DNA from: Candidatus Staskawiczbacteria bacterium
Lineage (GTDB): Bacteria; Patescibacteriota; Minisyncoccia; Minisyncoccales; Staskawiczbacteraceae
Assembly: GCA_903885445.1 (NCBI GenBank)
Contig: CAISIO010000006.1
Coordinates: 79,309-143,308 of the forward strand
Length of the DNA: 64,000 bases
Reading direction: 5' to 3'
Shown here: positions 1-58,351 of the stretch, one piece after another
Numbering within the stretch: position 1 is the stretch's first letter
How the letters are laid out: each line of letters begins with the position of its first letter
Notes under the pieces: model-generated
Told to the model about the DNA's origin: nothing
The model's database searches: none
The model's input: only the letters and a program-made list of their open reading frames with translations
Made by a program: the position numbers and the translations under genes

Positions 1-95
1 TTAGGCTTCAACCACTCCTCCCATATGTAATCTAGATACTCTTGCGTCGGGAACACCGACGCAGGCAGCCAACGACCCTCAACCATCTGAGGCAT
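1..95 (-). CDS. N-terminal fragment of a G+C-rich ORF that continues beyond the left window edge; function unknown
   Basis: ATG at 95 (minus) with AAAGGA 7 nt upstream. The frame stays open to position 1 (MPQMVEGRWLPASVFPTQEYLDYIWEEWLKP...). It is missing from the ORF track only because it is truncated. Composition matches 261..548. Confidence 0.35.
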   Translation of the reverse strand, partial: MPQMVEGRWLPASVFPTQEYLDYIWEEWLKP

Positions 96-156
96 TCAGT
101 TGTCCTTTCAACGAACAAACAAAGGTGCGCCTACTACTTTTCGACACTCCGATGAT

Positions 157-184
157 ATTATACCCCTTAAAAAAACATTGTCAA
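157..184 (-). promoter_or_regulatory. sigma70-like promoter for the truncated ORF at 95..1
   Basis: Minus strand reads TTGACA (184..179), a 16-nt spacer, then TATAAT (162..157). It lies in an AT-rich gap between two G+C-rich ORFs. Confidence 0.4.
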
Positions 185-195
185 TCTAAAATTAT

Positions 196-231
196 AAAAA
201 AAGACGGCCTGGCGTTCGCGGACGCCAGGCC
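196..231 (-). terminator. Rho-independent terminator downstream of ORF 261..548
   Basis: Perfect 10-bp inverted repeat GGCCTGGCGT/ACGCCAGGCC (206..231) with a 6-nt loop. On the minus strand it is followed by GTC and a run of seven T (202..196). Confidence 0.75.
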
Positions 232-260
232 AAAGAATGATTGGAGAGGGGTTGACTAGC

Positions 261-548
261 CTAGCTTCGGGGTCGCTGTCGCAGGTCAGGCCTCCTGCAT
301 AGGGTTTTCTGCCCCTCTTTACCGCGGCCGGAGGACTTCTGCCAGGCGGCCACGATCAAGCCCTGGATGTCTTCCGGCTCGACGGGACGGATGTTAGCCG
401 TGATTGCACTGGCCAGAGAGCGCAACACACTGTCACCCGGCCGTGCTCCTTTTGAAACACGTTCCCGAAGAAACACCGCTTCGGGAGTTTGGGGCAAACG
501 ATGAGTGCGCGGTTGAGACGCGGTTGCCGTAGCTGCCACAGTCGTCAT
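261..548 (-). CDS. G+C-rich 95-aa hypothetical protein with a weak carrier-protein-like GDSV(L) motif
   Basis: ORF-track ORF with AAGGA 6 nt upstream of the ATG at 548 and a terminator 30 nt after the stop. I recognise no family. The PGDSVLRSLASAI segment loosely resembles the GxDS(L/I) phosphopantetheine site of ACP/PCP. Confidence 0.55.
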   Translation of the reverse strand: MTTVAATATASQPRTHRLPQTPEAVFLRERVSKGARPGDSVLRSLASAITANIRPVEPEDIQGLIVAAWQKSSGRGKEGQKTLCRRPDLRQRPRS

Positions 549-627
549 GGATCGTCCTTTGTCCTAGTTCTACTCTGTTTCACTGATCACTAATGATACA
601 AGACGTGAGAACCCCCAAGAAACCCCG

Positions 628-696
628 CTAGATTGGATCACCTCCTTCCATGGAAGATTTCAACGAACTTAACCTCGAACACGATTGTTTCGCCAT
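628..696 (-). CDS. Candidate 22-aa mini-ORF (MAKQSCSRLSSLKSSMEGGDPI) in the leader of ORF 261..548
   Basis: AAGGAG (708..703), a 6-nt spacer, then ATG at 696; stop TAG at 630..628. It lies downstream of the promoter at 732..760. It is too short for the ORF track and there is no homology evidence. Confidence 0.25.
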   Translation of the reverse strand: MAKQSCSRLSSLKSSMEGGDPI

Positions 697-731
697 AGTC
701 GGCTCCTTCATCTAATGGCGCTTTCACAATT

Positions 732-760
732 ACTATAGCCCTTTCGTAAATTAATGTCAA
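732..760 (-). promoter_or_regulatory. sigma70-like promoter driving the mini-ORF and the 95-aa ORF
   Basis: Minus strand reads TTGACA (760..755), a 17-nt spacer, then TATAGT (737..732). Confidence 0.4.
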
Positions 761-799
761 TCTTTATTTCGAACCAAATAAAATGTATAATTTTTGAAT

Positions 800-1345
800 A
801 TGATTATAATAATTGGTTTGGGAAATCCCGGAGAACAATATAAAAACACTCGGCACAATATCGGGTTCATGGCAGTTGACGAGTTCGCGAAAAAAAATAG
901 TTTTCCCGAGTTTGAGTTGCAAAAAAAATCCAATGCGCTGGTTTCTGCAAGCAACGACATATTGCTGGCAAAGCCTCAGACATTTATGAACGATTCTGGC
1001 AAGGCAGTAAAAGAAATCTGTAAAAACAAAAAATCCGCGGACTTGATTATAATCCACGACGATATAGACCTGCCGTTGGGAAAAATAAAAATAGTAAAAG
1101 ACCGCGGTTCTGCCGGACACAAAGGAGTCGAGTCTATAATCCAAAACATCGGAAACGACGGATTAATAAGATTTAGAATTGGAATTGGTTCGGAAAATAA
1201 AGTTGAAGCAATGAAGGTTGTTTTGAAAAACTTCTCGACAGAAGAACAAAAAATACTAAACGAGGTTTTGAAAAAAATAGTCAGCGCCCTTGATTTATTT
1301 GTAGCCGAAGGATTGGAAAAAACAATGAATGAATATAATAAATAA
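800..1345 (+). CDS. pth: peptidyl-tRNA hydrolase
   Basis: MIIIIGLGNPGEQYKNTRHNIGF and the later IIHDDIDLPLGKIK..GSAGHKG blocks are typical Pth. The ORF-track start at 794 is TTG; the first ATG is at 800. Confidence 0.9.
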   Translation: MIIIIGLGNPGEQYKNTRHNIGFMAVDEFAKKNSFPEFELQKKSNALVSASNDILLAKPQTFMNDSGKAVKEICKNKKSADLIIIHDDIDLPLGKIKIVKDRGSAGHKGVESIIQNIGNDGLIRFRIGIGSENKVEAMKVVLKNFSTEEQKILNEVLKKIVSALDLFVAEGLEKTMNEYNK

Positions 1346-3377: not shown

Positions 3378-3409
3378 AAAAGAGGGGCGCTGGCTGTTTG
3401 CCAGTCCCC
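3371..3409 (-). terminator. Rho-independent terminator of the FabZ-like gene
   Basis: Imperfect hairpin GGGGcgCTGGC/GCCAGtCCCC (3384..3409) starting at the TAG stop. On the minus strand it is followed by TCTTTTTTAT. Confidence 0.6.
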
Positions 3410-3987
3410 TACGACTCTTGCTCAATCCTGCTCGGATCGAAGGCCACGAGCGATACAGAACCGATAGTTGCCTTTTTCTTTCCGCCCACCTTGGCGACCA
3501 TTCTTCCGCCCTCGATAAGGACGACCCCGCCTAATTCATCGGCGCTCAACTCAGCCCTCATCTCAAGGCAGACGGTTTCACCAGGACGAACAAATCCGCT
3601 GAACTTTGCGGAAGTTACCTCCCTGGCCGCCAACTTCTTGCCCTCCAGCATTTCGCTTATCTCCGGGTCGCGGTAGTGGAACAGAAAAACGCCGAGCAGC
3701 TGGAAGGCCATCTCAATGATATCAACCCCGCGGTGAACTCGCATGCCCTTTACGGGTTCATGCCCTTCGCAGAGCTTGTCCGTAACCTTGAAAGAACCCA
3801 CGACCGCTGTCTTCGTTATTCTGACCTCGTCGAGCAACAGCTTGTCCCCTTCGTGGAAGAGTATCTCCTGGATTTTCTGCTTGTCGACGATGATTTCCTT
3901 GACTTCCTCTTCTTTCGGGGGCTCTTCTTTCGGGGGCTCTTCTTTCGTCTTGTCTCCGCCAAAAGGCCAGAAATTAAACTTCTTCAT
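3409..3987 (-). CDS. G+C-rich FabZ/FabA-like hotdog-fold dehydratase homologue with an N-terminal PKEEP repeat
   Basis: ILFHEGDKLLLDEV and CEGHEPVKGMRVHRGVDIIEMAFQ align with the FabZ blocks LPHRxPFLLVDxV and GHFPxxPvMPGVLxiEaxAQ. The in-frame ATG at 3987 has GGAGAAG upstream, so the longer ORF-track N-terminus is rejected. Confidence 0.7.
   Translation of the reverse strand: MKKFNFWPFGGDKTKEEPPKEEPPKEEEVKEIIVDKQKIQEILFHEGDKLLLDEVRITKTAVVGSFKVTDKLCEGHEPVKGMRVHRGVDIIEMAFQLLGVFLFHYRDPEISEMLEGKKLAAREVTSAKFSGFVRPGETVCLEMRAELSADELGGVVLIEGGRMVAKVGGKKKATIGSVSLVAFDPSRIEQES
3907..3947. repeat. 15-nt tandem repeat, about 2.7 copies, inside the FabZ-like gene
   Basis: CTCTTCTTTCGGGGG occurs at 3907..3921 and 3922..3936, with a partial third copy to 3947. 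On the minus strand it encodes EEPPKEEPPKEEE. Confidence 0.9.
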
Positions 3988-4052
3988 GGGCTTCTCCGTG
4001 TATCTGGTTCGATGGCTGCTTGGTTGTACAAAGGGCTGCTTAACACACGATA

Positions 4053-4080
4053 ATAATACCACGAAATAATAAAAATGCAA
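4053..4080 (-). promoter_or_regulatory. Possible promoter of the FabZ-like gene
   Basis: Minus strand reads TTGCAT (4080..4075), a 16-nt spacer, then TATTAT (4058..4053), preceded by TGg (extended -10-like). Confidence 0.3.
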
Positions 4081-4158
4081 GGTCAATTATGTTCAAATTG
4101 AATTTATGTGCTATATTAAGAAAAACAAACGTATTAATAACTGGCAAATAAATAAAAA

Positions 4159-6195: not shown

Positions 6196-7930
6196 CGGCA
6201 TACAAAGGATCATAAACAAAAGTTCAGATCCCAAGCTTATTGAGGCTGTTTTTGAGTTTGCAAAAGAGGCGTACAAAGAAAGATCAAGGCCTTCCGGAGA
6301 AAATTATATTATGCATGCCGTAAAAGTGGCAACAACGCTTGATAAAATGGACCTCGATCCGACGACAATCGCTTTTGGTATTTTGCACGATATAATATAT
6401 GACGTTCCCGATTCCGCCAGAAAAGTTGAGATTAAAGAAATTGAAAAAAGATTTGGTAAGGAAATGGGCCATTTAGTGGAAAAAATTTCCGGCCTTAGCA
6501 AAATACGTTATTCTCTATCTGTCGGCATAAGAGATAAAAAAACATTCACCAGGGAAAAAATTGAAAACCTAAGAAGAATGTTTCTTGCTTTGTCGGAAGA
6601 CATAAGGGTGGTCTTAGTCGAACTTGTTTCAAGGCTGGATGAATTGGATATTTTGCACTATCTGCCCAAAGACAAGCAAATGTTGTATGCTCTAGAAACT
6701 TTGCAGATTTTCGTTCCGATTGCGAGCCGTCTGGGATTGTCCGAAATCAGAAGAAGCCTTGAAGATACCGCCTTTATGTATTTGTACCCGGAAAAATATA
6801 AATGGCTTAAAGAAAATATCAAAGAGCAGTATGAAGAAAGAGAGAAATATCTCAAAAAATTCATTCCCCATCTCCAAAAAATCTTTAAAAAAGAAAGAGT
6901 AAGAATTTTAGACATAAATTACAGGGTAAAATCTTATTGGAGCACATACCGAAAGCTTGCAAACCATGAAATGAACTTTAATAAAATCCACGACCTGATT
7001 GCGCTCAGGATAATTGCCCCTGATATTGAAAGCTGCTACCGGATTTTGGGCGTAGTGCATAAGCACTTTAAACCAATTTCCGAAGAAATAGATGACTATA
7101 TAGCAAAGCCTAAATCAAACGGCTACAGATCTTTGCACACCACTATTTTTTCGCAAGATGGAAAAATAACTGAAGTGCAGATAAGAACGGAAGAAATGCA
7201 AAGAGAAGCTGAATACGGCGTTTGCGCCCACTGGTCTTACAAAGAAAGAATCAATCTTAAAAAAGAGGGCGCAGATTTTGATTGGCTTAAAAATGTCCCT
7301 GATTTCTGGAAAACCTTTAAAATAGATTTTTTTACAAATAAAGTTTTCCCATTCACGCCAAAAGGAGACGTTATCGTTCTGCCGAAAAACTCAACGCCGG
7401 TTGACTTTGCGTATGCGGTGCATTCAGATATCGGCAACCATTGCGAATCGGCAAAGATCGGCGGAAAAATAGTTCCGCTTGACCATATTTTAGAAAATGG
7501 TGACCTGGTGGAAATCACCATAAATAAAAACAAAAAACCGTCAAAGGATTGGCTTAATTTTGTTAAAACGTCCCTGGCAAAGTCAAACATAAAAAAACTG
7601 ACCGGCGAAGAAGGATCAGCTTTGAGATTCCCCTTATCTATTCCCGGTTTTATAAAAAGAAAAATATCAGAAATTTCCGAGGCTTCAAGAAAAAAAAGAG
7701 AAGAAAAACAAAAAGTAGGAAAAGGGAAAATACGCCAGATATATCTGGCAGGACAAAAAGGAATTTATATACACATAGCCAAATGTTGCAATCCTCAGCC
7801 AGGAGATAAGGTGGGCGCGTATGTCCCCCAAAACAGGGCTCCGGCAATTTTACACCGGCTATCCTGCAATAATTTCAAGAAAATAGCCGAGAAATTCCCG
7901 GAAAAAATAATCGATGCTTCGTGGGAGTAG
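6182..7930 (+). CDS. RelA/SpoT-homologue (p)ppGpp synthetase/hydrolase
   Basis: HD hydrolase region (HAVKVA..GILHD). Synthetase block (YRSLHTTI, EVQIRT). TGS domain (FTPKGDVIVLPKNSTPVDFAYAVHSDIG). Confidence 0.9.
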   Translation: MQINNGIQRIINKSSDPKLIEAVFEFAKEAYKERSRPSGENYIMHAVKVATTLDKMDLDPTTIAFGILHDIIYDVPDSARKVEIKEIEKRFGKEMGHLVEKISGLSKIRYSLSVGIRDKKTFTREKIENLRRMFLALSEDIRVVLVELVSRLDELDILHYLPKDKQMLYALETLQIFVPIASRLGLSEIRRSLEDTAFMYLYPEKYKWLKENIKEQYEEREKYLKKFIPHLQKIFKKERVRILDINYRVKSYWSTYRKLANHEMNFNKIHDLIALRIIAPDIESCYRILGVVHKHFKPISEEIDDYIAKPKSNGYRSLHTTIFSQDGKITEVQIRTEEMQREAEYGVCAHWSYKERINLKKEGADFDWLKNVPDFWKTFKIDFFTNKVFPFTPKGDVIVLPKNSTPVDFAYAVHSDIGNHCESAKIGGKIVPLDHILENGDLVEITINKNKKPSKDWLNFVKTSLAKSNIKKLTGEEGSALRFPLSIPGFIKRKISEISEASRKKREEKQKVGKGKIRQIYLAGQKGIYIHIAKCCNPQPGDKVGAYVPQNRAPAILHRLSCNNFKKIAEKFPEKIIDASWE

Positions 7931-7972
7931 TCTTGAAAATCCCGGCAAAATAATATAATATAAGCGAAATAA

Positions 7973-8056
7973 GCCGAGGTGGCGGAACTGGCAGACGCAC
8001 GGGACTCAAAATCCCGCGATCGCAAGGTCATGAGGGTTCAATTCCCTCCCTCGGCA
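7973..8056 (+). tRNA. tRNA-Leu (anticodon CAA), type II with a long variable arm
   Basis: Acceptor GCCGAGG/CCTCGGC plus discriminator A. Anticodon stem CGGGA/TCCCG with loop CTCAAAA. T arm GAGGG-TTCAATT-CCCTC. CCA is not encoded. Confidence 0.9.
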
Positions 8057-8798
8057 CATCATATTCATCAAGCGGTTCAGGTATAATAATTTTTACCGTG
8101 CCGCTTTTTATTTTGTCTTTTAATTTGGGCAAATCATTTTTCCTGAAATCGCGATTCATATGCGTTAATGCCAAACATTTAACTTTATTTTCTTCGGCAA
8201 ATTTTATAGCAGAAACAATTGAGGAGTGACCAATTTTTTCCTGGTCATATAAATAAGTTTCCAAAACCAGCAGGTCTAATCCTTTATAAAAATCTGTCCC
8301 GGGTATCGGCGATCCATCTCCGCCATACGCATAAATATTATTCCCATCATCTATTTTTACGGCCAAGTTTTCTCCAGAATGAACCGTCTTTGCAAAAGAT
8401 AATTTTAAGTCTTGAAAATTTATCTGTTTATCGTCTTTTGACTCAACCAGGTTAATTTTATATTCAAATAGTTCCATAAACCCGCTGTAAATGGACTCCA
8501 TAAATCCTGCAAAATGGTCTTTTATGTTATTTTGGCAAATGATAGTAAGGTCTCTTTTCCTTCCGCCTTCCCACATCCTTAAAAGTAAAGCCGGCAATCC
8601 TAAAAAATGGTCGCCATGAATATGGCTTATACAGATTGCGTCCAAAAAATTTGGGTCTGGATTAAACTTCCACATTTGCCAAGGAATGGTAAAACCGCAG
8701 TCCAAAAGCAACTTGGTTTTATCTGTTAGAACCAAACTGGAATTATTGGGATAATTTTCATCAAACGCCTCGCCAACTCCTAAAAATATAACTTTCAT
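8028..8798 (-). CDS. metallo-beta-lactamase-fold hydrolase
   Basis: HIHGDH (HxHxDH) motif. The ATG at 8798 (MKVIFLGVGEAF) forms an ATGA overlap with the PAP2 stop. The 3' end overlaps tRNA-Leu on the opposite strand by 29 nt. Confidence 0.75.
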   Translation of the reverse strand: MKVIFLGVGEAFDENYPNNSSLVLTDKTKLLLDCGFTIPWQMWKFNPDPNFLDAICISHIHGDHFLGLPALLLRMWEGGRKRDLTIICQNNIKDHFAGFMESIYSGFMELFEYKINLVESKDDKQINFQDLKLSFAKTVHSGENLAVKIDDGNNIYAYGGDGSPIPGTDFYKGLDLLVLETYLYDQEKIGHSSIVSAIKFAEENKVKCLALTHMNRDFRKNDLPKLKDKIKSGTVKIIIPEPLDEYDVPREGIEPS

Positions 8799-9295: not shown

Positions 9296-9302
9296 TCATG
9301 AG

Positions 9303-10550
<1,248 letters not shown>

Positions 10551-10554
10551 AATT

Positions 10555-16508: not shown

Positions 16509-16536
16509 TTGACAAACAATTTAAAAATACTATAGT
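16509..16536 (+). promoter_or_regulatory. sigma70-like promoter of the receiver-domain gene
   Basis: TTGACA (16509..16514), a 16-nt spacer, then TATAGT (16531..16536). Downstream: AAAGGAG, then 7 nt, then GTG at 16596. Confidence 0.45.
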
Positions 16537-16595
16537 AATATATTGCGTCAGAAATAGATCCGAACAAGTCTCCAACCAGACAAAGGAGCAAAACT

Positions 16596-16961
16596 GTGGC
16601 TGACATCCTGTTGGTAGAGCCCGCTGCGCAGGTCGTAGAATACCTGCTCGGCATGCTCGCTAGGCACAATGTAACTCAGGTGCCCGATGCCGCAATGGCA
16701 AGAAGTATCATGGCGGAAGGAAGGAAATTCGATCTCCTGATTACCGCCGATAACCTTCGCGGCCAGAGCGGCTTGGAACTGATCGGATGGACACGGACCC
16801 ACTGTCCGAGAGCCCTCCGCACTGTTCTCATGAGCCCCTCGGAGCCGCCCAGCCACAAGGCCCACGGCTTCGTCAAGAAGCCGAAGTACAGGGGCTTCGT
16901 GGCAATCGTCGACAGGCTACTAGCCAGTCAGCCGACACCCGCCACAATTCCAGCGGCCTAA
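16596..16961 (+). CDS. G+C-rich stand-alone response-regulator receiver (REC) domain protein, atypical acidic pocket
   Basis: REC layout: ILLVEP (beta1), FDLLITAD (beta3, D52), VLMSPS (beta4, S80), GFVKKP (beta5, K95-P96). No output domain. GTG start with a strong SD. Confidence 0.7.
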   Translation: MADILLVEPAAQVVEYLLGMLARHNVTQVPDAAMARSIMAEGRKFDLLITADNLRGQSGLELIGWTRTHCPRALRTVLMSPSEPPSHKAHGFVKKPKYRGFVAIVDRLLASQPTPATIPAA

Positions 16962-16985
16962 CAAGGCGCCGTTCATCGCACACCA

Positions 16986-17011
16986 GGGCCTCCCGCGAGG
17001 TCTCTTTTTTT
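16986..17011 (+). terminator. Rho-independent terminator of the receiver gene
   Basis: Hairpin GGGCCTC-CCGC-GAGGTCT (with G-U wobbles) followed by C and seven T. The T-tract abuts the tatD stop codon on the opposite strand. Confidence 0.6.
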
Positions 17012-17834: not shown

Positions 17835-18515
17835 CTATTTTACTCTAACAAAGCCCTCTCTAATTTCTCCCTCTAAAAAATCTTCCACCTCGGTTTGGGT
17901 CTTTTCTTCGATTCTATCAACTTTTGACAACTCCTCTTCTACGTTACCCCAAAATGCCTGCAAAACGGCAAGGGCCCCTTCTTGTTTGGCCAAGGAAAAA
18001 AAGAAACCGAATATATATGTTTTCCTCGGACTGTTGCTGTCGGAGTAGATTACATCTTGAGCGAATGGTTTAGTCGAATTATCTAAGGAGATACAATCTA
18101 ATCCTAACTGCTTATTAGTAGAATCGATAACGCTTTCAAAAAAAGCATTTAGTGACTGTTCTATTTGCTTCCTTTGTTTAGACGACACATTTTTCGCCGG
18201 AGCGCTAAACATAATTTCCGGTTCTCTTGGGTGTTTATTCACTTTACCCACAAGTTCGGGCAATGTTGGAGCATTAGCCAAAGAGCCATCCTCTTGCACA
18301 TGGCCAGAACATGAACCTTCTGTTTTTATGCCCGACTTAGGAAATTCTCTCCTAGCTATCCTGTTGAGCCTCTTTAGTATACTCACGATTGGCTTGTCTG
18401 CGCAATCTAAGTCTTCCCAAAGCTCCTTTTCTTCCGGAGAAACGGGTAAAAAATTTTGCGCTTGTTCGGCTCTAGCCTCCTTAAATTTTTCCGGCATAAT
18501 TTTTTTATTTTGCAA
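17835..18515 (-). CDS. hypothetical protein (226 aa)
   Basis: Long ORF overlapping the metG stop by 11 nt. No motif recognised. Confidence 0.6.
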   Translation of the reverse strand: MQNKKIMPEKFKEARAEQAQNFLPVSPEEKELWEDLDCADKPIVSILKRLNRIARREFPKSGIKTEGSCSGHVQEDGSLANAPTLPELVGKVNKHPREPEIMFSAPAKNVSSKQRKQIEQSLNAFFESVIDSTNKQLGLDCISLDNSTKPFAQDVIYSDSNSPRKTYIFGFFFSLAKQEGALAVLQAFWGNVEEELSKVDRIEEKTQTEVEDFLEGEIREGFVRVK

Positions 18516-24026: not shown

Positions 24027-24081
24027 ATGTTTTAAGTTTATGTAATCTTACCCTTTTGAGCTGGTAATTTCAATGTTAAAT

Positions 24082-24123
24082 AAAAAAAGGCGCCCCAGAG
24101 AGCGTCTTCGGCCCTAGAACGCC
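24082..24123 (-). terminator. Possible terminator of the 78-aa ORF (weak)
   Basis: A GC-rich segment ending in GGGGCGCC is followed on the minus strand by seven T (24088..24082). I could only draw short GGCG/CGCC or GGCGCC/GGCGCC pairings. Confidence 0.3.
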
Positions 24124-24140
24124 AAAATCCTAGAGCTAAT

Positions 24141-24377
24141 CTATTGAGGCGCCACACAGCTCCATTCTCCCACGGAAACCGGGAGCTGATTGTTGGGTTT
24201 TTGTCCGCCATCGTCGGCCGGCTTGTCCTCCTTGCTTTTGCGAGGATAGCTAACGCAAAATCTAAAACCCAACCCGCGGCAAGGGGAATTTTCGTCTCCG
24301 CCTCGATTCGCGCACGTGCGATTGTCGCATGCGACCCCTAAGGCAGCCCTCATCGGGTCTGTTATGACTCCGCTCAT
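24141..24377 (-). CDS. G+C-rich 78-aa protein with five Cys, no recognisable family
   Basis: GAGGAGG lies 6 nt upstream of the ATG at 24377, with a promoter-like element upstream. Cys at residues 17, 22, 33, 41 and 74. No signal peptide or TM segment is visible. Confidence 0.55.
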   Translation of the reverse strand: MSGVITDPMRAALGVACDNRTCANRGGDENSPCRGLGFRFCVSYPRKSKEDKPADDGGQKPNNQLPVSVGEWSCVAPQ

Positions 24378-24446
24378 CGCCGTACCTCCTCAACTAAAGA
24401 AGGTTCAAAGAGCAAATCGAAAGAGAAACTCTCAGCACGTTATATA

Positions 24447-24474
24447 ATTATGAACTTCGCAAAAAAGAAGTCAA
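24447..24474 (-). promoter_or_regulatory. Possible promoter of the 78-aa ORF
   Basis: Minus strand reads TTGACT (24474..24469), a 16-nt spacer, then CATAAT (24452..24447). Confidence 0.35.
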
Positions 24475-36029: not shown

Positions 36030-36476
36030 ATGAAGGTTTATTCGGAAAACAAAAAAGCGGGATTTGATTATGAGATTTTAGAACGCTTTGAGGCGGGGCT
36101 GGTTTTGTTTGGACAGGAAGTAAAATCAATAAAAACCGGGCATATAAATTTGGCGGGGGCTTATGTGGCTTTAAGGGGTGAAGAACCGTTTTTGGTGGGA
36201 GTAAAAGTGCCTCCGTACCAGCCAAATAACGCCGGAGCTGACTTTGGCGAGGAAAGGGAAAGGAAGGTTCTTTTGAACAAAAAAGAGATAAATTATTTGA
36301 TTGGGAAGACAAAAGTGAAGGGTTTTGCCTTGATACCCTTGAAAATTTATGATAACAATGGTAGAATAAAACTCGAATTCGGATTAGCTAAAGGAAAGAG
36401 AAAATACGACAAAAAAGAGAAAATAAAGAAACGGGACGCAGATAGAGAGGTTAATCGCGAATTATCACGGGAGTGA
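36030..36476 (+). CDS. smpB: SsrA-binding protein
   Basis: NKKAGFDYEILERFEAGLVLFGQEVKSIK and a basic C-terminal tail. The ATG at 36030 is preferred over the TTG at 36012. Confidence 0.92.
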   Translation: MKVYSENKKAGFDYEILERFEAGLVLFGQEVKSIKTGHINLAGAYVALRGEEPFLVGVKVPPYQPNNAGADFGEERERKVLLNKKEINYLIGKTKVKGFALIPLKIYDNNGRIKLEFGLAKGKRKYDKKEKIKKRDADREVNRELSRE

Positions 36477-36819
36477 TTGTTTCGACAGGTGCTCTTTGCT
36501 AAGATATGCAAACCCAGTATTCTGAAACCTGGTAAAACTTTCAGAAAAATCATAATTGCCAATTTATTTAATAGGCAACCAGCGTTAGCTTTAGCTTAAA
36601 TGCTGCATCTTCGCCATCAACTCCTGATAGGTGGGTCGAAGGTGTTATTTATCAGGATAGATAATTTTTTCTCCCCGAATAATTATCGAAAACAACCGGG
36701 GATAGGATATCAGAAATTTTTTCTATCCCGTACCTGATATTCAAACAAATAGGATAGAATAAGTTTGTAGAATTATTTTAGAAAGGCATTTGGACGGGAT
36801 TTCAATATCCCCACTTCCA
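36469..36819 (+). ncRNA. ssrA: tmRNA (SsrA), tag ANLFNRQPALALA
   Basis: 5' GGGAGUG pairs with 3' CACUUCC, including the G3-U alanine identity pair. T arm GGGAU-UUCAAUA-UCCCC (GACGGGAUUUCAAUAUCCCCA). Tag reading frame GCC..GCT TAA at 36558..36599. The gene directly follows smpB. Confidence 0.9.
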
Positions 36820-36840
36820 CATTAGTAATTAAAAAATCAA

Positions 36841-38418: not shown

Positions 38419-40143
38419 TTATTTCTTAAAATACTTTAACAAATCTTCAATCGGCAAGGTGTTGATTATATCTCCCTTTTCTGCCCAGCCGCGGCGCGCT
38501 TGAGAAACTCCGTATTCCATATAATCTAATTGTTCTTTCTTGTGTGCATCTGTATTAATTATCATTTTTACTCCTTCATTTTTAGCGCGGCGGATATATA
38601 AATCCCTCAGGTCTAATCTGGAAGAAGAATTAATTTCCAAAATCGTTCCGGTTTCTTTTGCAAGTTTTAATATTTTATCAAAATCAACTTGATACTCATC
38701 TCTCTGCCCTACAATTCTTCCGGTCGGGTGAGCTAAAATATCTATATTGGGATTTTTCATTGCTTTTTCAATCCGCGCCATCATTTCTTTTTTCTCCATT
38801 TTTAATATCGAATGCACGCCGGCAATCACGTAATCTAATTTTTCCAAAACCTCATCTTTTATATCTACCGAACCGTCTGCCATAATGTTTGCCTCGCATC
38901 CATGCAACACTTTAAACTTTTTTCCCTGCTTTTCAAGTTTCTCATTTATCTTTTTAATTGCCTCGTGTTGTTTTAATAATTGTTTCTCATCCAAGCCGTG
39001 TTCAATTTTTAAAAACTTTGTGTGGTCAGAAATGCCGATATATTCATATCCTAAATCCATCGCAGTCTTCGCCATTTGTTCTATAGAATCCTCTCCGCCA
39101 TCCCAATCAGAATGGCAGTGCAAGTCGCCCTTAATATCTTTTACATCAAATAATTTTGGCAATTTTCCCCGCAACGCGGCATCGATTTCTCCTTCATTTT
39201 CCCTCAACTCCGGCTCAATCCATGGGAGTCCAATGGCCTTATAGACATTTTCTTCTGTGACGCCAGCAATTTGTTTTTTACCTGCAAAAACGCCGTACTC
39301 TGAAAGTTTTAAACCCTTCTCAATGGCGATACGCCTGGTAGCAATATTATGGTCTTTGCTTCCCGTAAAATACTGCAAAGCAGAACCATAGCTTCTTTTT
39401 TGCACAATCCTTAAATCCATATCAAAACCTTCGCGCATTCTTATGGAAGCTTTTGTCCCGCCCTTAGCCCAAACCTTTTCTACGCCGGGAAGCTTCACAA
39501 AAAAATCCATAACTTTTGTAGGACTCTTTGAAACAACTAATATATCTACATCTCCAATTGTTTCTTTTCTTCTTCTTGTTGAGCCGGCGATACTTATTTG
39601 GTCAACTTCTTTCAAAAATTTTAATTTCTCTACAACACTTCTTGCAGTCGGCAAAATCTCATGCAACAAGAACCTTCCCTTATCTCTTTTTAGAAACTCT
39701 AACCCCTGCAAAATATTTTTCTCTGTTTTTTCGCCAAATCCGAAAAGCGGGGATATTTCATGGGCATTCGCAGCTTTTTCCAAGTCTTTTAAATTTTTAA
39801 CTCCCAATTTTTGGTAAAGCGTCCTTGCTTTTTTAGCTCCCATCCCCTCAACTCTTACCAATTCGTCTAAATCAATCGGAAGCTGTTTTTTAAATTTTTC
39901 GTATTGCTTAACTTTTCCTGTCTTCAGATACTCTTCAATATGGTCTGAAATCGCCTTTCCGACTCCGGGAATTTCCATTAGAGCCCTTATTCCTCCTTTC
40001 ACATAAACATCTCCGACATCTTCATTCAGCAACTCTAAAGAAATCGCCGCCCTCTCATATGCATATGGCTTAAAAGCCACGCCATCCATTCTAAGGAACC
40101 GCGCCATATCATTGAATATTTTTGCCAACTCTTGGTTTCTCAT
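38419..40143 (-). CDS. polX: DNA polymerase X family protein with a C-terminal PHP domain
   Basis: HhH region, Pol-beta nucleotidyltransferase GSTRRRKETIGDVDILV, and PHP DLHCHSDWDGG. The ATG at 40143 (MRNQELAKIF) is used; the ORF-track N-terminal extension overlaps the upstream gene. Confidence 0.85.
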   Translation of the reverse strand: MRNQELAKIFNDMARFLRMDGVAFKPYAYERAAISLELLNEDVGDVYVKGGIRALMEIPGVGKAISDHIEEYLKTGKVKQYEKFKKQLPIDLDELVRVEGMGAKKARTLYQKLGVKNLKDLEKAANAHEISPLFGFGEKTEKNILQGLEFLKRDKGRFLLHEILPTARSVVEKLKFLKEVDQISIAGSTRRRKETIGDVDILVVSKSPTKVMDFFVKLPGVEKVWAKGGTKASIRMREGFDMDLRIVQKRSYGSALQYFTGSKDHNIATRRIAIEKGLKLSEYGVFAGKKQIAGVTEENVYKAIGLPWIEPELRENEGEIDAALRGKLPKLFDVKDIKGDLHCHSDWDGGEDSIEQMAKTAMDLGYEYIGISDHTKFLKIEHGLDEKQLLKQHEAIKKINEKLEKQGKKFKVLHGCEANIMADGSVDIKDEVLEKLDYVIAGVHSILKMEKKEMMARIEKAMKNPNIDILAHPTGRIVGQRDEYQVDFDKILKLAKETGTILEINSSSRLDLRDLYIRRAKNEGVKMIINTDAHKKEQLDYMEYGVSQARRGWAEKGDIINTLPIEDLLKYFKK

Positions 40144-40151
40144 TAAATTAT

Positions 40152-40790
40152 TTACGGCCCTATTACCGGCTTTCCTAATATCACTTTTTCGTTTCCTTTT
40201 AGGGAGATATGCCTCCTTATTGGTATTAAAATTAATACGGACACAAAATTCAAAACGCTGACGGCCACAAAGAGTACTCCAAATCCAAGTGCTCCGGCAA
40301 TAATCCCTCCCAATCCGCCAGCTATGCCAGCTCCCGCTCCGATCGAAGTGCTTTCCATGCCCCATTCTAAGCCCTCCTTGCCCTTATCTATGTGCCTGGT
40401 AAAAATTGCCAGCCAGGAAGGAAGCGCCAACGCCATGCCGAAAGCGTACAAAATCTGGAGGAGATAAATATGCCACGGAGCCGAAGAAAGCATATAGCCG
40501 AGTGGCACAAAAGCCATTAAAAAATAACCGAAAACCATAAACCAAAAATCATCCCTCTCGCCTCTCTTCTTGTCTAAAAAATATCCTATAGGTATTTCAA
40601 TTAAAGATTTTGGTATCCAATAGAACAAAGCTGAAAAACCAGCGACTTCCGCCGCTATTAAAGGGTTTCCCATTGTTATGTTACGTAAAATAAATATGGC
40701 AAAAACCGGGGACAACAACCCCCATCCTAAATTAAGGAAAAAATCCGCGGTTATTAACGTTCTCACTATTTTGTTTATAATTTCTGGCAT
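40152..40790 (-). CDS. half-size MFS-like membrane protein (6 TM)
   Basis: MFS motif-A-like GYFLDKKRGERDDF between TM2 and TM3. Only about 212 aa. Confidence 0.55.
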   Translation of the reverse strand: MPEIINKIVRTLITADFFLNLGWGLLSPVFAIFILRNITMGNPLIAAEVAGFSALFYWIPKSLIEIPIGYFLDKKRGERDDFWFMVFGYFLMAFVPLGYMLSSAPWHIYLLQILYAFGMALALPSWLAIFTRHIDKGKEGLEWGMESTSIGAGAGIAGGLGGIIAGALGFGVLFVAVSVLNFVSVLILIPIRRHISLKGNEKVILGKPVIGP

Positions 40791-45576: not shown

Positions 45577-45579
45577 CTG

Positions 45580-45651
45580 TGCCCCCAGCTGGATTCGAAC
45601 CAGCATCGCAGGCTTCGGAAGCCTAAATTCTATCCATTGAAATATGGGGGC
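45580..45651 (-). tRNA. tRNA-Arg (anticodon CCG)
   Basis: The 72-nt cloverleaf was checked by hand. Acceptor GCCCCCA/TGGGGGC. Anticodon stem TAGGC/GCCTG with loop TTCCGAA. T arm GCTGG-TTCGAAT-CCAGC. Discriminator A. Confidence 0.9.
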
Positions 45652-46590: not shown

Positions 46591-46591
46591 A

Positions 46592-47539: not shown

Positions 47540-47540
47540 A

Positions 47541-48987: not shown

Positions 48988-48988
48988 T

Positions 48989-49396: not shown

Positions 49397-49408
49397 ATGA
49401 TGATTTGA

Positions 49409-51370: not shown

Positions 51371-51371
51371 T

Positions 51372-52187: not shown

Positions 52188-52216
52188 ATTCTATAAATTA
52201 TTTTATTTGTATTATA

Positions 52217-52777: not shown

Positions 52778-52796
52778 CGTATTATCTATATAGTAT

Positions 52797-54746: not shown

Positions 54747-54771
54747 GCGGACTCTTTTTGATAGTGGTTAA

Positions 54772-56343
54772 TTAAGCTACTTTTCTACTTTTGCGCTGCT
54801 TTTTAACCTGGGTTATCGCTTTTTTCATTTGCTTTTTGCGCTGCTTTTTTTCCACTTTTGTCTTGTCTTCAACCGGTTCTAACACAGGCTTAGGTTGTTC
54901 TACCAATTTTTCTGCTTTATAAGATTCCACCGCTTGCGCTATTATTTCTTTGGCGCAAGTTTGTTTTACTTCTTGCAGCCTCCTCTTCCCTTCACTAATT
55001 TTTGCATCAACTATTGCTACCGCACGTTCTTTTATTTTTTTATCGGGGTTTTCCGCCACCCACGTGTTAATATCCTCCTTGCTTCCGTCAGACTCCAAAG
55101 ACGTTTTACCGTCTGCAGATGGTATTACTACTGCAGTAAATCCAAAAAGCCTTTTAAGCCAGCCCCTTATTTTTGCATCCTCCGGCTTCAGGCCCGCATT
55201 TACCAGGCCCGCGAAAACGTCTTCAGATATGCTTAATTTTTTCATTTTTTGTTCAAGGTGCGCCTTAAACTCCGACGAGCCTTGTCCTTTTAACCGGACT
55301 TTGTCTTTATCAGAAAGCCGCGCCCAGCAAGTTGCGACCGACTTGGAACGCTCTTTTTCGTGAATCATTTCCTCTGCCTGCGCTATTGTCTTTTGCCTGT
55401 ATTCTTCAATCGCTTTTTTACCCACTAAAACCGTCATCCCTTTATCTCTTTCCCTTTTATATGCCATTTCGTTTCTTTCCCTGGCTAAATGCCTATGTTC
55501 TCCCGCTTCATTTTCTGTAAGATTTCTAAAAGATTCTACGGCCCTTCTCGGGTCCCTACCTATCACTCCTGAATCGGACAAAAATTCCGCCGCTTTTTCT
55601 TTGGCAGCTTTTATTGCTTCTGTTAATTTTTTGATCTCCGCATCAATAACTGGTCCAGCCTCCGCTTCTGCTAGCGGACCTCCTCTTGAAACCTCTGTCC
55701 TTCTCTCTTTCGCACCTTTAAGCTCTTGATATGTTTTTCCTATTTTTTCCCTGGGTTCCTGCATAGATTGCCTTGGTGTTGGAGCCTCTCCAACGGACTC
55801 TTCGCCCGACTTCTCAATTTCTTTTTTAACTAAATTTGCGCCCTCAGTTTGCACATGATATGCAATGGTTGTAATTGCTTTATCAAAAGCATCCTCGTTA
55901 AACTTTTCCCCGTAGGCGATTTGCAGTTCCTTCAAAAGAGCGGCTTGATCAACGCTTCCTTCGCTAAGCAACCTCCCCAACACCGCACCCTTATAACGAT
56001 CATCTTGTTTAGAAGGATCATTCTCGTCTTTTTCTTTTTGCCTTTCTGTATATTCGCTAAGTTTATCCATTAACTTTTTTACAAGCTCTTCATCGTCCGG
56101 CAAAATAATGTCTTTTCCTTTTTGCTCTACTACTTCAGCTTTCGCCGAGCCAAAAGTATCGCCCACCGCTTTCGTGTGATCAGTGTTCATTTGTTCAAGC
56201 GCAGCAACCGTATTTTCTGTTTTGGCATCCCGATTAATGCTGTCTGAATTAACATCATTAAATTCTTCTCCCTGTAAATTATTAATTAGACCGCTCCCGG
56301 ATTCCTGATCTGGTTCTCTCGGGCCCGTTTCTTTTGATGCCAT
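54772..56343 (-). CDS. hypothetical highly charged (Lys/Glu-rich) protein, 523 aa
   Basis: Long ORF with no recognisable motif, a very basic C-terminal tail, and a composition somewhat richer in G+C than its neighbours. Confidence 0.65.
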   Translation of the reverse strand: MASKETGPREPDQESGSGLINNLQGEEFNDVNSDSINRDAKTENTVAALEQMNTDHTKAVGDTFGSAKAEVVEQKGKDIILPDDEELVKKLMDKLSEYTERQKEKDENDPSKQDDRYKGAVLGRLLSEGSVDQAALLKELQIAYGEKFNEDAFDKAITTIAYHVQTEGANLVKKEIEKSGEESVGEAPTPRQSMQEPREKIGKTYQELKGAKERRTEVSRGGPLAEAEAGPVIDAEIKKLTEAIKAAKEKAAEFLSDSGVIGRDPRRAVESFRNLTENEAGEHRHLARERNEMAYKRERDKGMTVLVGKKAIEEYRQKTIAQAEEMIHEKERSKSVATCWARLSDKDKVRLKGQGSSEFKAHLEQKMKKLSISEDVFAGLVNAGLKPEDAKIRGWLKRLFGFTAVVIPSADGKTSLESDGSKEDINTWVAENPDKKIKERAVAIVDAKISEGKRRLQEVKQTCAKEIIAQAVESYKAEKLVEQPKPVLEPVEDKTKVEKKQRKKQMKKAITQVKKQRKSRKVA

Positions 56344-56408
56344 ATTTTTTTAGAAAATAAATTTTATATTATTCTTAATTTTACCACCAGCAAAAAAAAC
56401 AGTCAAAT

Positions 56409-56436
56409 AAAAAAAGAAGCCGGTCGTCAGACCAGC
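56409..56436 (-). terminator. Rho-independent terminator of the radical SAM gene
   Basis: Minus strand reads GCTGGTC-TGAC-GACCGGC followed by TTCTTTTTTT. A second perfect hairpin GGCTCAA/TTGAGCC lies at 56440..56457, between the stop and the terminator. Confidence 0.7.
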
Positions 56437-56463
56437 CTGGGCTCAAAAGGTTGAGCCTATGTT

Positions 56464-58185
56464 TCAATTAGAAGGAGTAATAAACCGGCAAGGCGTAAGC
56501 CCGGGGTGAAGCTTAACGGCTGCCTCATTGCCTTCGTAAAAAGTCGGCGGCTCGTAGGTCCAGCCAGATGCCAAGCGCCTTTCTTCACGAAGAATCTTAT
56601 ACCAGACAAACGGCCCGCCGAGCAAAGAGAATATACGGCTCTTGAACCCAAGCACGCGGTGCATTTCGCCCAACAGCACAGACATCTTGGCGTACATTGC
56701 CGGGTTGCGTCGGTAGTACAACCTTGCGCCCGCAACCATGGCAATATATGTTGTTGCCAAATCACGGGCTTCCCATAAATAACGGTCGCGGATACGCTTA
56801 TCGGGATGGTTGCGATAGCGTTCAAGACCGGCCAGCGTAGTCCGCGCAACACGGGCAACGCTTGGCCCATTGACGGCAAAATCGAGACGGAAAGCTTCCA
56901 GAAGCATTTTTGTCTCGTCACCCGGTGGGATGTGCGGATGGCGGTAGTTTAGAATGAACTGCCCGTGAACGTCAGCCGGATTAACCTCAGAATCAGCCTT
57001 CATCAACCCGCGGGCGGTGAGTTCGGCGTGGAGCGGGGTACCGGCAGCGGGAGTGTAAAGCATAAACTGGTGGAAATCTGTGTCGTATCTCGACGCATAT
57101 TTTATCGCGGCACCGATATTCTGGGGCGTATGTTCGTCCAAAGCAATGATTGTCGAGCCCAACACGCGAATACCGTGTGACTGAAGGTCCTTCACCAACG
57201 CAAACGCGTCAATGCCCTCCAGTTTTTGGTACTGGCTGTTTTCGCCTTCCAGTCCCATCCACACCCACGAGATTCCAAGCCGGACAAGCTCGTCCATTGT
57301 GTACGAACGAATCACGTTCGCAGAGCTGAACACGTACAGGCTCCACGACTTGTTGTGAGCCTCCATCAGTTCCAGCAGACGCATGGCTCGCTTGCGGTGG
57401 AGCAGGAAATTCTCGTCCATAACAAAGAACGATCGAATTTTCATGGTCTGCTCAAGCTGACACATGACATCGAATAGTTCTTCTCCACTCTCGTAGAACT
57501 GGACGCATTTCCCCTTTCCGCCGAACATGGCCGAAGTAGAACAGAAATTGCATCCCAATGGACATCCAACTGACGGGAGTAATGTTGCCGCCACTTCGCC
57601 CTTTAGCTTGATTCCAACGCATCGCCCGCCCATGCCTGACTTGATCAGCGGATGGCGAATCGGGGTGTTCTCGTCTTCGCCAAGATATCTGCGGAACCAA
57701 CGCACTCCTTCACCCTGGACGACAATATCTGCGTCGATTTTCTCGCCCAAGTCGAGTACATTGGCTATGTGCCCGCCAACGACTATCACCGCTTTTGGCT
57801 GATAATACCGAATCCACTCGCACATCTTGCGGACCTTGCGGATATTGGGCCAGATAGAGGAAATACCAATGATATCATACTGTCTGCTTTGTAGCTCCTG
57901 TATAAAGCGCCTTCGCGTCGGAAAATCCAGTAAAGTGCACGGCGCGGTAATATTAGCCTGGATAAGCATCAAGCCCCAGCTTCGATGGAACATCCGCAAA
58001 GAGAAGGGTCCCTGCTCGCGAGTAACCTGGTTCTGATAGAGTTCCATCGGGTTGATGGCTCGACTTCCATACTCGTCGTCTCGGGCGTACGGCCCGAAGA
58101 CACTGGTCAAAAGGACTTTCGCCCCTGTCCCGAGCGGATGCGGTTGCACCTCTGTTTCTTCTGCGCTGATTTTTATGGCTGACAT
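56464..58185 (-). CDS. G+C-rich class-B (B12-binding domain) radical SAM enzyme
   Basis: N-terminal Rossmann-like B12-binding region (YDIIGISSIW, AVIVVGGHIAN) followed by the CxxxCxxC cluster CPLGCNFC. GAGGAG lies 6 nt upstream of the ATG at 58185. Confidence 0.85.
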   Translation of the reverse strand: MSAIKISAEETEVQPHPLGTGAKVLLTSVFGPYARDDEYGSRAINPMELYQNQVTREQGPFSLRMFHRSWGLMLIQANITAPCTLLDFPTRRRFIQELQSRQYDIIGISSIWPNIRKVRKMCEWIRYYQPKAVIVVGGHIANVLDLGEKIDADIVVQGEGVRWFRRYLGEDENTPIRHPLIKSGMGGRCVGIKLKGEVAATLLPSVGCPLGCNFCSTSAMFGGKGKCVQFYESGEELFDVMCQLEQTMKIRSFFVMDENFLLHRKRAMRLLELMEAHNKSWSLYVFSSANVIRSYTMDELVRLGISWVWMGLEGENSQYQKLEGIDAFALVKDLQSHGIRVLGSTIIALDEHTPQNIGAAIKYASRYDTDFHQFMLYTPAAGTPLHAELTARGLMKADSEVNPADVHGQFILNYRHPHIPPGDETKMLLEAFRLDFAVNGPSVARVARTTLAGLERYRNHPDKRIRDRYLWEARDLATTYIAMVAGARLYYRRNPAMYAKMSVLLGEMHRVLGFKSRIFSLLGGPFVWYKILREERRLASGWTYEPPTFYEGNEAAVKLHPGLTPCRFITPSN

Positions 58186-58280
58186 TGCAAACTCCTCATA
58201 GAAAACAGTTGTCTTCCGTATTTTGCGGGTTTATGCCCGCATTTTGTTAAGGTTCGGAAATCGGTCAAAACTGCTCCTTA

Positions 58281-58309
58281 AATATACCACTTGGGATATC
58301 CTATTGCAA
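58281..58309 (-). promoter_or_regulatory. Possible promoter of the radical SAM gene
   Basis: Minus strand reads TTGCAA (58309..58304), a 17-nt spacer, then TATATT (58286..58281). Confidence 0.35.
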
Positions 58310-58351
58310 AAAAAAATATTATATGATATTATCTTATTATTATAAGAAACT

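Follow-up and report, generated by a model that had tools for sequence, protein, structure and literature searches.

The window analyzed in this work is a 64,000-nt stretch of DNA from Candidatus Staskawiczbacteria, a lineage of the Parcubacteria within the Candidate Phyla Radiation (CPR, or Patescibacteria). The backbone of the window is an AT-rich chromosome, and interspersed in it are five islands of sequence rich in G+C (GC), whose open reading frames (ORFs) are the subject of this report. Examination of the flanking genes revealed that the islands lie upstream of pth, between mfd and topA, between leuS and tatD, between GlyRS and a zinc-ribbon gene, and between a 523-aa ORF and S20. The neighboring genes are all housekeeping genes (pth, mfd, topA, RelA/SpoT, SHMT, leuS, tatD, MetRS, GlyRS, UvrB, S20, and the Pol III delta subunit), in keeping with a preliminary description of this DNA in which the islands had been placed in intergenic gaps. 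Six transcription units were predicted from the sequence of the five islands, two of which (1a and 1b) share island 1. Promoter matches were scored over the 12 positions of the sigma-70 consensus. The units are listed below together with their Shine-Dalgarno (SD) sequences, 5' untranslated regions (5'UTRs), and, for the ORFs, the GC content at third codon positions (GC3).

Unit 1a, 1..184, minus strand: TTGACA at 184-179, a 16-nt spacer, and TATAAT at 162-157; ATG at 95, opening an ORF (MPQMVEGRWLPASVFPTQEYLDYIWEEWLKP...) that exits the window start.
Unit 1b, 195..760, minus strand: promoter TTGACA-N17-TATAGT at 760-732; 5'UTR of about 180 nt (549-728) containing GGAAGGAGGTGATCC; 95-aa ORF at 261-548, GC 0.61; terminator hairpin at 205-232 followed by a T-tract.
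Unit 2, 3384..4095, minus strand: promoter-like sequences at 4053-4095; FabZ-like hotdog ORF at 3409-3987, 192 aa from the ATG, GC3 0.67; terminator hairpin at 3384-3409 with a T-tract abutting the mfd stop codon.
Unit 3, 16509..17011, plus strand: promoter TTGACA-N16-TATAGT at 16509-16536; SD AAGGAG; atypical receiver ORF of 121 aa at 16596-16961 with a GTG start, GC3 0.70; terminator at 16986-17003 followed by a T-tract.
Unit 4, 24072..24474, minus strand: promoter TTGACT-N16-CATAAT at 24474-24447; SD GAGGAGG; 78-aa ORF with five Cys at 24141-24377, GC3 0.59; two hairpins and a U7 tract at 24085-24136.
Unit 5, 56410..58309, minus strand: promoter TTGCAA-N17-TGgTATATT at 58309-58281; SD GAGGAG; 573-aa B12-binding radical SAM ORF at 56464-58185 with the motif CPLGCNFC, GC3 0.61; two hairpins and a U-tract at 56410-56458.

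The promoter scan gave 12/12 consensus matches for unit 1a and 11/12 for units 1b and 3, and 10/12 were read from the sequence for units 4 and 5, the latter also having a TG extension. Unit 2 has either a 9/12 match or an extended -10 element only and is not near-consensus, so that the near-consensus promoter earlier attributed to every unit holds for all but this one. A hairpin followed directly by a run of about seven U residues closes each of the five complete units; the stems are of 7-10 bp, and the terminator of unit 5 had a folding z of -4.95. The 24.1-kb island, previously thought to have no clear terminator, is among these, with the hairpins and U7 tract listed above. The previous assignment of a single ORF to each island was accurate except for island 1, where a truncated ORF beginning at 95 and the 95-aa ORF belong to different units. 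As judged from these predicted signals, the units would be autonomous and independently transcribed. The product assignments in the preliminary description (a class-B radical SAM enzyme, a FabZ-like hotdog protein, an orphan receiver, a five-Cys 78-aa ORF, and a 95-aa ORF) were all retained.

The compositional contrast between islands and backbone was evident by several measures. Sliding-window GC with merged-island detection gave a mean of 39% for the window and about 38-39% for the backbone, with more than 50% in five segments (1-~730, ~3384-4050, ~16540-17010, ~24075-24450, and ~56410-58260). When ORFs were called by a greedy procedure, GC3 was bimodal, being 0.21-0.45 (median 0.385) in 59 backbone ORFs and 0.59-0.70 in the five complete island ORFs. 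The island genes also have a single common profile at four-fold degenerate sites, poor in A and rich in C (A 13-21%, C 29-44%, G 24-29%, T 11-25%), versus A/C/G/T of roughly 28/20/23/29 in the backbone. GC across the units is 0.52-0.61, and it is raised in the untranslated parts as well (42-55% in the 5'UTRs and 54-71% in the 3'UTRs). One edge of each compositional switch lies near the -10 element or transcription start, and the other is the terminator. The five abruptly bounded GC-rich segments originally noted by eye were thereby borne out by sliding-window GC, GC3, and four-fold sites alike. The dinucleotide signature distance between islands and backbone was 151, compared to 39 +/- 13 (maximum 81) for size-matched backbone samples. 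This signature was also tried as a test of foreignness independent of GC, and was rejected as failing to discriminate: csrA of related genomes, employed as a control of long residence, looked equally foreign.

A mild rise in GC at 40.2-40.5 kb was considered as a possible sixth island and rejected, as it corresponds to a Gly/Ala-rich membrane-protein ORF with no cassette. That 212-aa ORF (40152-40790, minus strand) is overlapped by about 210 nt by a 648-aa PolX/PHP-like ORF (38419-40365, minus strand), whose true start is probably an internal Met near 40143.

We found none of the hallmarks of a classical integrase-mediated genomic island, that is, an integrase or recombinase, a tRNA or tmRNA target, and flanking direct repeats. 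No convincing flanking direct repeats or terminal inverted repeats were detected around the islands, and no tRNA or tmRNA lies beside them, the two tRNAs (7973-8057 and 45579-45651) and the tmRNA being distant. No integrase is present among the island-adjacent genes, the remainder of the window not having been exhaustively scanned. These results uphold the earlier statement that the islands are devoid of flanking repeats, an adjacent tRNA, and a neighboring integrase. A blastn search for DNA shared among the islands, or for copies elsewhere, returned only self-matches, the coding region of planctomycete radical SAM genes, and two short FabZ-like matches. The units resemble integron cassettes in size, in having a single ORF, and in the structure at the 3' end. 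However, integron cassettes are promoterless, bear attC, and are arrayed beside an integron integrase, whereas the units here have their own promoters and short hairpins with T-tracts, are scattered across 58 kb, and lie near no integrase; they do not qualify as integron cassettes.

Structured RNA genes were considered as a cause of the high GC and rejected, since the only Rfam gathering matches in the window were the tmRNA and the two tRNAs. Scans of islands 1 and 4 at relaxed Rfam E-values gave nothing convincing, the best E-value in island 4 being 0.46. The tmRNA (36469-36822, plus strand, Rfam 114.8 bits) is itself only about 36% GC, so that structured RNAs in this genome are not GC-rich, which argues against RNA genes as an explanation for the islands. 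Folding of the unit 1b 5'UTR was no better than that of shuffled sequence (z = +1.4), and this leader had no Rfam match. The ordinary folding of this leader and the lack of Rfam matches in the islands indicate that the islands are protein-coding cassettes rather than RNA genes.

We then compared the window with related contigs, fetched and numbered as L loci (L167-L207 being viral loci). LeuS matched proteins from dozens of Candidatus Staskawiczbacteria metagenome-assembled genomes (MAGs) from unrelated projects, with identities up to 84%, and Mfd matched proteins on 80 further metagenome contigs. The gene order around leuS and mfd is conserved, as seen in more than 100 independently assembled contigs. 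In L004, L007, L018, L025, and L026 about 100 bp separate tatD from leuS, with a terminator and the leuS promoter and nothing else between them; the gap widens to 0.4-1.4 kb in the other relatives, where different genes, mostly GC-richer, fill it. Between mfd and topA there are 30-60 bp in about 13 contigs, and elsewhere this gap contains dprA and/or assorted GC-richer genes directly downstream of mfd.

The GC-rich genes of the relatives proved to have an architecture of their own. Among ORFs of core families, defined as those present in at least 20 syntenic contigs, 0/312 and 0/224 had a GC3 of 0.12 or more above the locus median, whereas 27-52% of rare ORFs did so in most prevalence bins. 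Comparison of 83 GC-rich with 771 typical ORFs from about 85 contigs plus the window gave the following values.

Median length: GC-rich 123 aa, typical 272 aa.
Upstream gap of at least 60 nt: GC-rich 81%, typical 32%.
Promoter match of at least 10/12, among ORFs with an upstream gap of at least 100 nt: GC-rich 61%, typical 12%.
Promoter match of at least 11/12, among the same ORFs: GC-rich 35%, typical 2%.
Terminator-like site downstream: GC-rich 30%, typical 9% (12% of those with a gap).

The promoter enrichment of GC-rich over typical ORFs is significant (p = 5e-8). The organization seen in the window, originally described as untypical of natural islands, is in this lineage the norm.

These comparisons bear directly on the suggestion, also made in the preliminary description, that the islands are an artefact, either of chimeric assembly or binning or of an engineered construct into which expression cassettes had been inserted. 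The near-consensus promoters and clean terminators do give the units a designed look. However, backbone sequence is found on both sides of each island within one contig, and Lac Pavin, Rifle, Danish soils, Alinen, SPRUCE, groundwater, and many JGI metagenomes have all yielded MAGs or contigs with the same architecture. Its occurrence across contigs of the lineage means that it is not an artefact of one assembly; it recurs in dozens of independently assembled relatives. Further, the junction between island 2 and mfd is common to two relatives, and the radical SAM gene has a GC3 of 0.61 rather than the 0.87-0.96 of its relatives, which is intermediate and not a donor composition. An artefactual origin is therefore highly improbable. 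The compositional switch is real, and the feature is a natural one.

The genes in the slots of these relatives include several that differ from those in the window. A typical, AT-rich dprA of about 288 aa lies between mfd and topA in L087, L089, L090, L092, L096, L099, L108, L110, L119, L124, and L129, and no dprA is present at this position in the window (3378-4158). The slot of island 4, between GlyRS and a 554-aa gene, holds in some relatives GC-richer genes resembling those of purine biosynthesis (GC3 0.46-0.60), which by-eye motif calls suggest are PurN-like (L020:1124-1726 and L024:1969-2556) and PurD-like (L043:1059-2366). A further GC-rich cassette family, encoding proteins of about 165-210 aa with a Trp-rich C-terminus, was found in a slot that differs between genomes (L008:3900-4870, L023:15900-16790, L029:10150-11050, and L013:3840-4610). 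The L008 and L029 copies have a 5'UTR hairpin in common, and the 3'UTR has repeated UUGGA/CUUUGGAC motifs resembling CsrA-binding sites. At all four loci a conserved element, TAGGCKAATMTKKCC, follows the terminator; this element is not present in the window. In this family the whole transcription unit and the TAGGCKAATMTKKCC element seem to move together.

The FabZ-like gene of unit 2 fell short of the curated FabZ cut-offs, reaching 20 bits with Pfam FabA (cut-off 23; E = 6e-4) and 24-25 bits with NCBIfam FabZ (cut-offs 113 and 155). An AlphaFold model with a mean predicted local distance difference test (pLDDT) score of 81.4 nonetheless had only FabZ structures as its top PDB matches, with a template modeling (TM) score of 0.78, normalized to the target, for 3d6x. 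The catalytic pair, His76 and Glu92, is invariant across the family alignment. On the basis of the predicted model and the alignment, the protein would have the FabZ hotdog fold with the catalytic His and Glu, and it is best described as a predicted FabZ-like protein rather than a FabZ orthologue. Among 5.8 billion proteins searched, only eight homologues were found besides the window copy. For two of these the contigs were fetched, and both genes lie between mfd and topA on AT-rich CPR contigs. At least 10 further contigs have a member of the family in the same position and orientation, and the slot is thus occupied in at least 12 related contigs. A scan of viral contigs revealed no relatives of the family.

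Pairwise identity among the FabZ-like proteins is 25-68% and is uncorrelated with the identity of the adjacent Mfd (60-90%; rho = 0.03). As an example, L089 and L122 have Mfd proteins that are 90% identical and FabZ-like proteins that are 34% identical. This uncoupling from Mfd is as expected of allele turnover at a fixed slot, and the alignments indicate that very divergent putative alleles have replaced one another there. The GC3 excess of the FabZ-like gene over mfd ranges from -0.06 to +0.34, the highest values being those of L108 (+0.34) and the window (+0.31). In the window, L121, and L122 the terminator T-tract meets the mfd stop codon at the identical nucleotide despite differing alleles.

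The receiver of unit 3 is similarly divergent. It scored 15.6 bits with Pfam Response_reg PF00072 (cut-off 30.2), and only 29 homologues with E <= 1e-3 were found among 1.84 billion cluster representatives. Its C-terminal motif EPxxHxAxxFxxKP is invariant and is common to the single-domain receivers of L009, L024, L039, L046, and L037, which occupy the tatD-leuS slot in the same orientation as in the window; the predicted protein fits an atypical receiver subfamily defined by this motif. In the window copy the acidic pocket is represented by EP and the acceptor column by Ala, with an Asp one position later, and the Lys of KP is conserved. Several members of the subfamily, including this one, have neither the acidic pocket nor the canonical acceptor Asp, and these are probably phosphorylation-independent receivers. 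The GC3 of the family ranges from 0.35 to 0.70.

The FabZ-like and receiver families are each found in relatives at the same sites as in islands 2 and 3. The preliminary description had held that relatives carrying the same genes at the same sites would count against foreign origin, and for these two islands this is in part the case, so that GC-richness alone is not readable as a sign of recent foreign origin.

The situation is different for the radical SAM gene of unit 5. Its product passed the Pfam cut-offs for the B12-binding domain PF02310 (37.1 bits; cut-off 32.1) and Radical_SAM PF04055 (33.9 bits; cut-off 29.5), and the features of a class B radical SAM protein are all recognizable: an N-terminal B12-binding domain, a radical SAM core, and a CxxxCxxC cluster motif in the form CPLGCNFC. 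It reached no NCBIfam equivalog, the best being HpnJ at 61.8 bits against a cut-off of 577.6, and the curated families accordingly do not name its reaction. The best homologues other than the protein itself are 66-79% identical in amino acid sequence, and all named ones belong to Planctomycetota (Pirellulales, Thermoguttaceae, Phycisphaerae, and Planctomycetaceae). Two of the closest are on contigs of 67% GC. At the DNA level the identity is 76% and is confined to the coding region. Synonymous differences from the closest homologue comprise 155 sites with A/T in the window and G/C in the other gene and only 7 of the reverse. The gene has no viral relatives among the viral contigs scanned. Comparison of the homologues clearly marks the gene as an inter-phylum import from Planctomycetota, in which either synonymous change ran strongly toward AT or the donor was of only moderate GC. 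A lake-water incubation is reported to have enriched Parcubacteria together with Planctomycetes (PMC9040852), which would make a planctomycete donor ecologically plausible. The gene-sized transfer proposed in the preliminary description is consequently clear for this gene, with a planctomycete donor, and the other units fit a flexible gene pool.

A second gene in the lineage may also be derived from planctomycetes. A Rifle Staskawiczbacteria MAG contains, at L021:131-1708 on the minus strand, a GC-rich ORF of 525 aa (GC3 0.69) that starts with ...LRVESLEPRQMLAG, an N-terminal motif that we take to be typical of planctomycete secreted proteins.

In principle, the islands could be the parts of one foreign pathway that modified peptides or lipids, came from one GC-rich donor, such as a planctomycete, and was later dispersed or was inserted in separate pieces. 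A toolkit for a ribosomally synthesized and post-translationally modified peptide (RiPP) or a lipid could be read into the radical SAM enzyme, the hotdog dehydratase, and the small Cys-rich ORF, and all units have a similar GC and four-fold profile. However, only the radical SAM gene has planctomycete relatives. Both FabZ-like homologues whose contigs were examined lie in CPR synteny at the same slot, and the receiver belongs to a subfamily of a CPR slot. In planctomycetes the radical SAM homologues have as neighbors DnaJ/GrpE/HSP70, PRA-CH, and unknown genes, none of them FabZ-like or a receiver, and relatives of the window fill the slots independently of each other. With genes that differ in their affinities, families that recur at their slots, and no clustering in planctomycetes, the dispersed pathway put forward in the preliminary description is very unlikely. 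The six units are more probably independent acquisitions or alleles than parts of one pathway.

The remaining two complete ORFs are less informative. Neither the 95-aa nor the 78-aa ORF matched Pfam or NCBIfam, and neither had relatives in the fetched loci or the viral contigs. The GC1/GC2/GC3 of the 95-aa ORF is 0.64/0.58/0.61, and the weak codon-position signal in both ORFs makes their coding status less secure. A likeness of the 95-aa ORF to a 90-aa family (MTTV...AERFVSAGAR) that L087, L106, and L132 have in the mfd slot was considered and rejected, as it was not significant by tblastn. A divergent small gene in the equivalent position upstream of pth was found in L083 and L084, with a promoter of the same type as that of unit 1b and, likewise, a long leader with a GAAGGAGGTGAT motif (L084:~7120-7140).

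The island 1 leaders have some further features. The GGAAGGAGGTGATCC sequence in the 5'UTR of unit 1b (633-650, minus strand) is a perfect complement of the 3' end of 16S rRNA, that is, a super-SD, and no start codon lies at the usual distance from it. An exact 11-mer, GTTCGTTGAAA, is common to the leaders of unit 1a (106-116) and unit 1b (658-668). The adjacent pth gene has an extended -10 element, TGTATAAT, at 784-791, only 8 nt upstream of the ATG at 800, and no SD; the nearness of this element to the ATG and the absence of an SD suggest that pth may be transcribed as a leaderless mRNA.

The csrA gene, absent from the window, occupies one conserved site upstream of tatD in 25 Staskawiczbacteria contigs (L005, L009, L011-L013, L015-L018, L021, L023, L027, L029-L031, L033, L035, L036, L040-L042, L048, L049, L052, and L058; for example L058:8223-8477). 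It is always GC-rich, with a GC3 of 0.41-0.76, and its core is 85-98% identical among most of the contigs. The four-fold GC of csrA exceeds that of leuS in 25/25 contigs (p = 6e-8). Identity at four-fold sites is 0.355 for csrA (0.28 by chance) and 0.394 for leuS (0.27 by chance), and csrA is therefore as saturated as leuS. CsrA identity is correlated with that of LeuS (rho = 0.40). With its sites saturated, a csrA gene acquired in a single ancient event should already have ameliorated; either its GC-richness is actively maintained or the gene is repeatedly re-imported. The 52-aa core of csrA is up to 100% identical to that of 41 IMG/VR contigs (L167-L207), several of which are 200-527 kb and have phage-like flanks (AAA ATPase, NYN, ParB-N, PD-(D/E)XK, and many unknown ORFs). 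The local GC of these contigs averages 0.49 and that of the gene 0.50, and the identical core on phage-like contigs of matching GC lends support to re-import. The csrA result means that atypical GC is no reliable date of transfer in this lineage; GC-richness marks a flexible, possibly phage-linked, strongly promoted class of genes and not necessarily recency.

At the site where relatives have csrA, the window has a 226-aa ORF (17835-18515, minus strand) that overlaps both of its neighbors, is embedded in an operon, and has a GC3 of 0.39. It has no match in Pfam or NCBIfam and no homologue in syntenic relatives. Its backbone composition shows that not every accessory gene here is GC-rich.

The csrA data raise the question of whether most of the islands are foreign. 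The islands could instead belong to a native class of short, monocistronic, strongly promoted genes, among them csrA, the receiver, and the FabZ-like gene, that is kept at about 50-60% GC by selection on the transcript or by a gene-specific bias in mutation or repair; most islands would then have descended vertically, and only the radical SAM gene would be foreign, its GC3 of 0.61 being the level of the class and not a stage of incomplete amelioration. This would account for the excess of csrA over leuS in every contig despite saturation, for the tracking of LeuS by csrA identity, and for the A-poor, C-rich four-fold profile that csrA has in common with the island genes of the window. It would also fit with the recurrence of the FabZ-like and receiver families at identical slots, the tight link between GC-richness and near-consensus promoters, the resemblance of the k-mer biases of the class to the backbone, and the typical composition of the operon-embedded accessory gene at 17835-18515. 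However, no fixed GC level is apparent, as the FabZ-like GC3 excess is continuous over its range and the receivers are similarly spread, and the FabZ-like identity is uncoupled from that of the flanking Mfd. The phage-like csrA contigs reveal an external pool that is GC-richer, and recurrent re-import from it could mimic maintenance. The gene for S20, a ribosomal protein and presumably highly expressed, is not GC-rich, and examination of the GC-rich genes for endoribonuclease-type motif avoidance revealed no specific depletion that would point to a selective agent at the RNA level. We know of no mechanism that yields a gene-specific shift in GC of 20-30 points. Altogether we consider such a native class unlikely, although far less so than a single pathway or an artefact. 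A broader proposal, that Staskawiczbacteria and perhaps other CPR bacteria maintain a second class of short monocistronic units with near-consensus promoters, intrinsic terminators, and a GC3 held for long evolutionary periods 15-30 points above the core, linked to expression or to phages and not the scars of recent horizontal gene transfer (HGT), is a tentative one that we rate slightly higher; csrA would be the instance of it, in 25/25 lineages with saturated synonymous sites. Such a class may also be exchanged continuously with the large phages that carry the identical csrA core.

The above considerations favor a reading in which the islands are probably moron-like accessory units of a single gene each, residing in hypervariable slots of a rigidly syntenic Staskawiczbacteria chromosome and drawn from a pool that is GC-richer than the core of about 38%. 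The FabZ-like gene and the receiver would be highly divergent GC-rich alleles of accessory families that circulate at these slots. DNA would enter the cell by uptake, CPR bacteria being thought to be naturally competent. Integration would then take place between an upstream terminator and a downstream promoter, by illegitimate recombination or with the help of homology in the conserved flanks, without the involvement of an integrase, a tRNA site, or a repeat signature. In a streamlined genome, units would persist only if they express themselves and come to lie in such a gap. Transfer of individual genes has been described in Patescibacteria, for which DNA uptake by way of pili and competence genes has been proposed (PMC12455944).

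Several points weigh against this moron-like reading. We infer the insertion mechanism in its entirety. No available relative exceeds 85% LeuS or Mfd identity to the window, as would be needed to date a gain. No GC-rich donor was found for the FabZ-like gene and the receiver, their nearest relatives lying in AT-rich CPR backbones at the identical slot, and both may have descended in situ with a compositional shift. Acquisition followed by amelioration cannot explain csrA unless re-import is frequent. Finally, the trinucleotide biases of the GC-rich class look nearer to those of the backbone than to those of Planctomycetes.

By definition, a moron has its own promoter and terminator and a deviating GC, and its insertion separates two genes that are direct neighbors in relatives (PMC3594210). 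The units described here are like phage morons in consisting of one gene with its own sigma-70 promoter and factor-independent terminator, both predicted from the sequence in this case, with a GC unlike that of their neighbors and with no recombinase or repeat signature. At the tatD-leuS and mfd-topA gaps they also part genes that adjoin each other in many related genomes, and csrA, a gene of the same class in relatives, is found on phage-like contigs as well. However, the units are not themselves morons, as the host replicon is a cellular housekeeping chromosome and not a phage or prophage. They are, further, GC-richer and not merely different in composition, and some of the slots hold recurrent and highly divergent alleles of one family, namely the FabZ-like gene and the receiver. 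The viral-contig scans were moreover negative for the FabZ-like gene, the radical SAM gene, and the 78-aa and 95-aa ORFs.

A second comparison is with the transferred genes and genomic islands of Patescibacteria (PMC12455944). That study likewise describes gene-sized transfer into streamlined CPR genomes, with exchange mostly within Patescibacteria and occasional donors from other phyla, and with competence and pili as the proposed route of uptake. The passages retrieved from it make no mention of a promoter-plus-terminator cassette architecture, of fixed syntenic slots, or of systematically GC-rich composition together with near-consensus promoters, and a planctomycete donor has 0 occurrences in its main text.

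Hypervariable islets, or flexible slots between core genes, are also known from other streamlined genomes such as those of marine picocyanobacteria and SAR11. These share with the window a conserved core order, variable genes at fixed positions, and divergent alleles apparently exchanged through conserved flanks. The units here differ in that each consists of one gene, 0.35-1.9 kb in size, and not of a multi-gene region; they are also GC-richer than the core and have strong expression signals of their own. Islets acquired by HGT are known as a kind. What is new is the detail, namely the architecture, its regularity across the lineage, the link to planctomycetes, and the anomaly of csrA.

CPR bacteria are uncultured, ultra-small, and dependent on hosts, and to our knowledge both the routes by which they gain genes and their hosts are largely unknown. 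The window reveals a simple and recurrent mode, in which single self-expressing cassettes occupy fixed gaps, the gene order around them is frozen, and no signature of a recombinase is seen. As the csrA genes caution, HGT detectors based on composition may misjudge recency in this lineage. The radical SAM gene of planctomycete origin is, in turn, a concrete hint that these bacteria may be physically associated with Planctomycetes.

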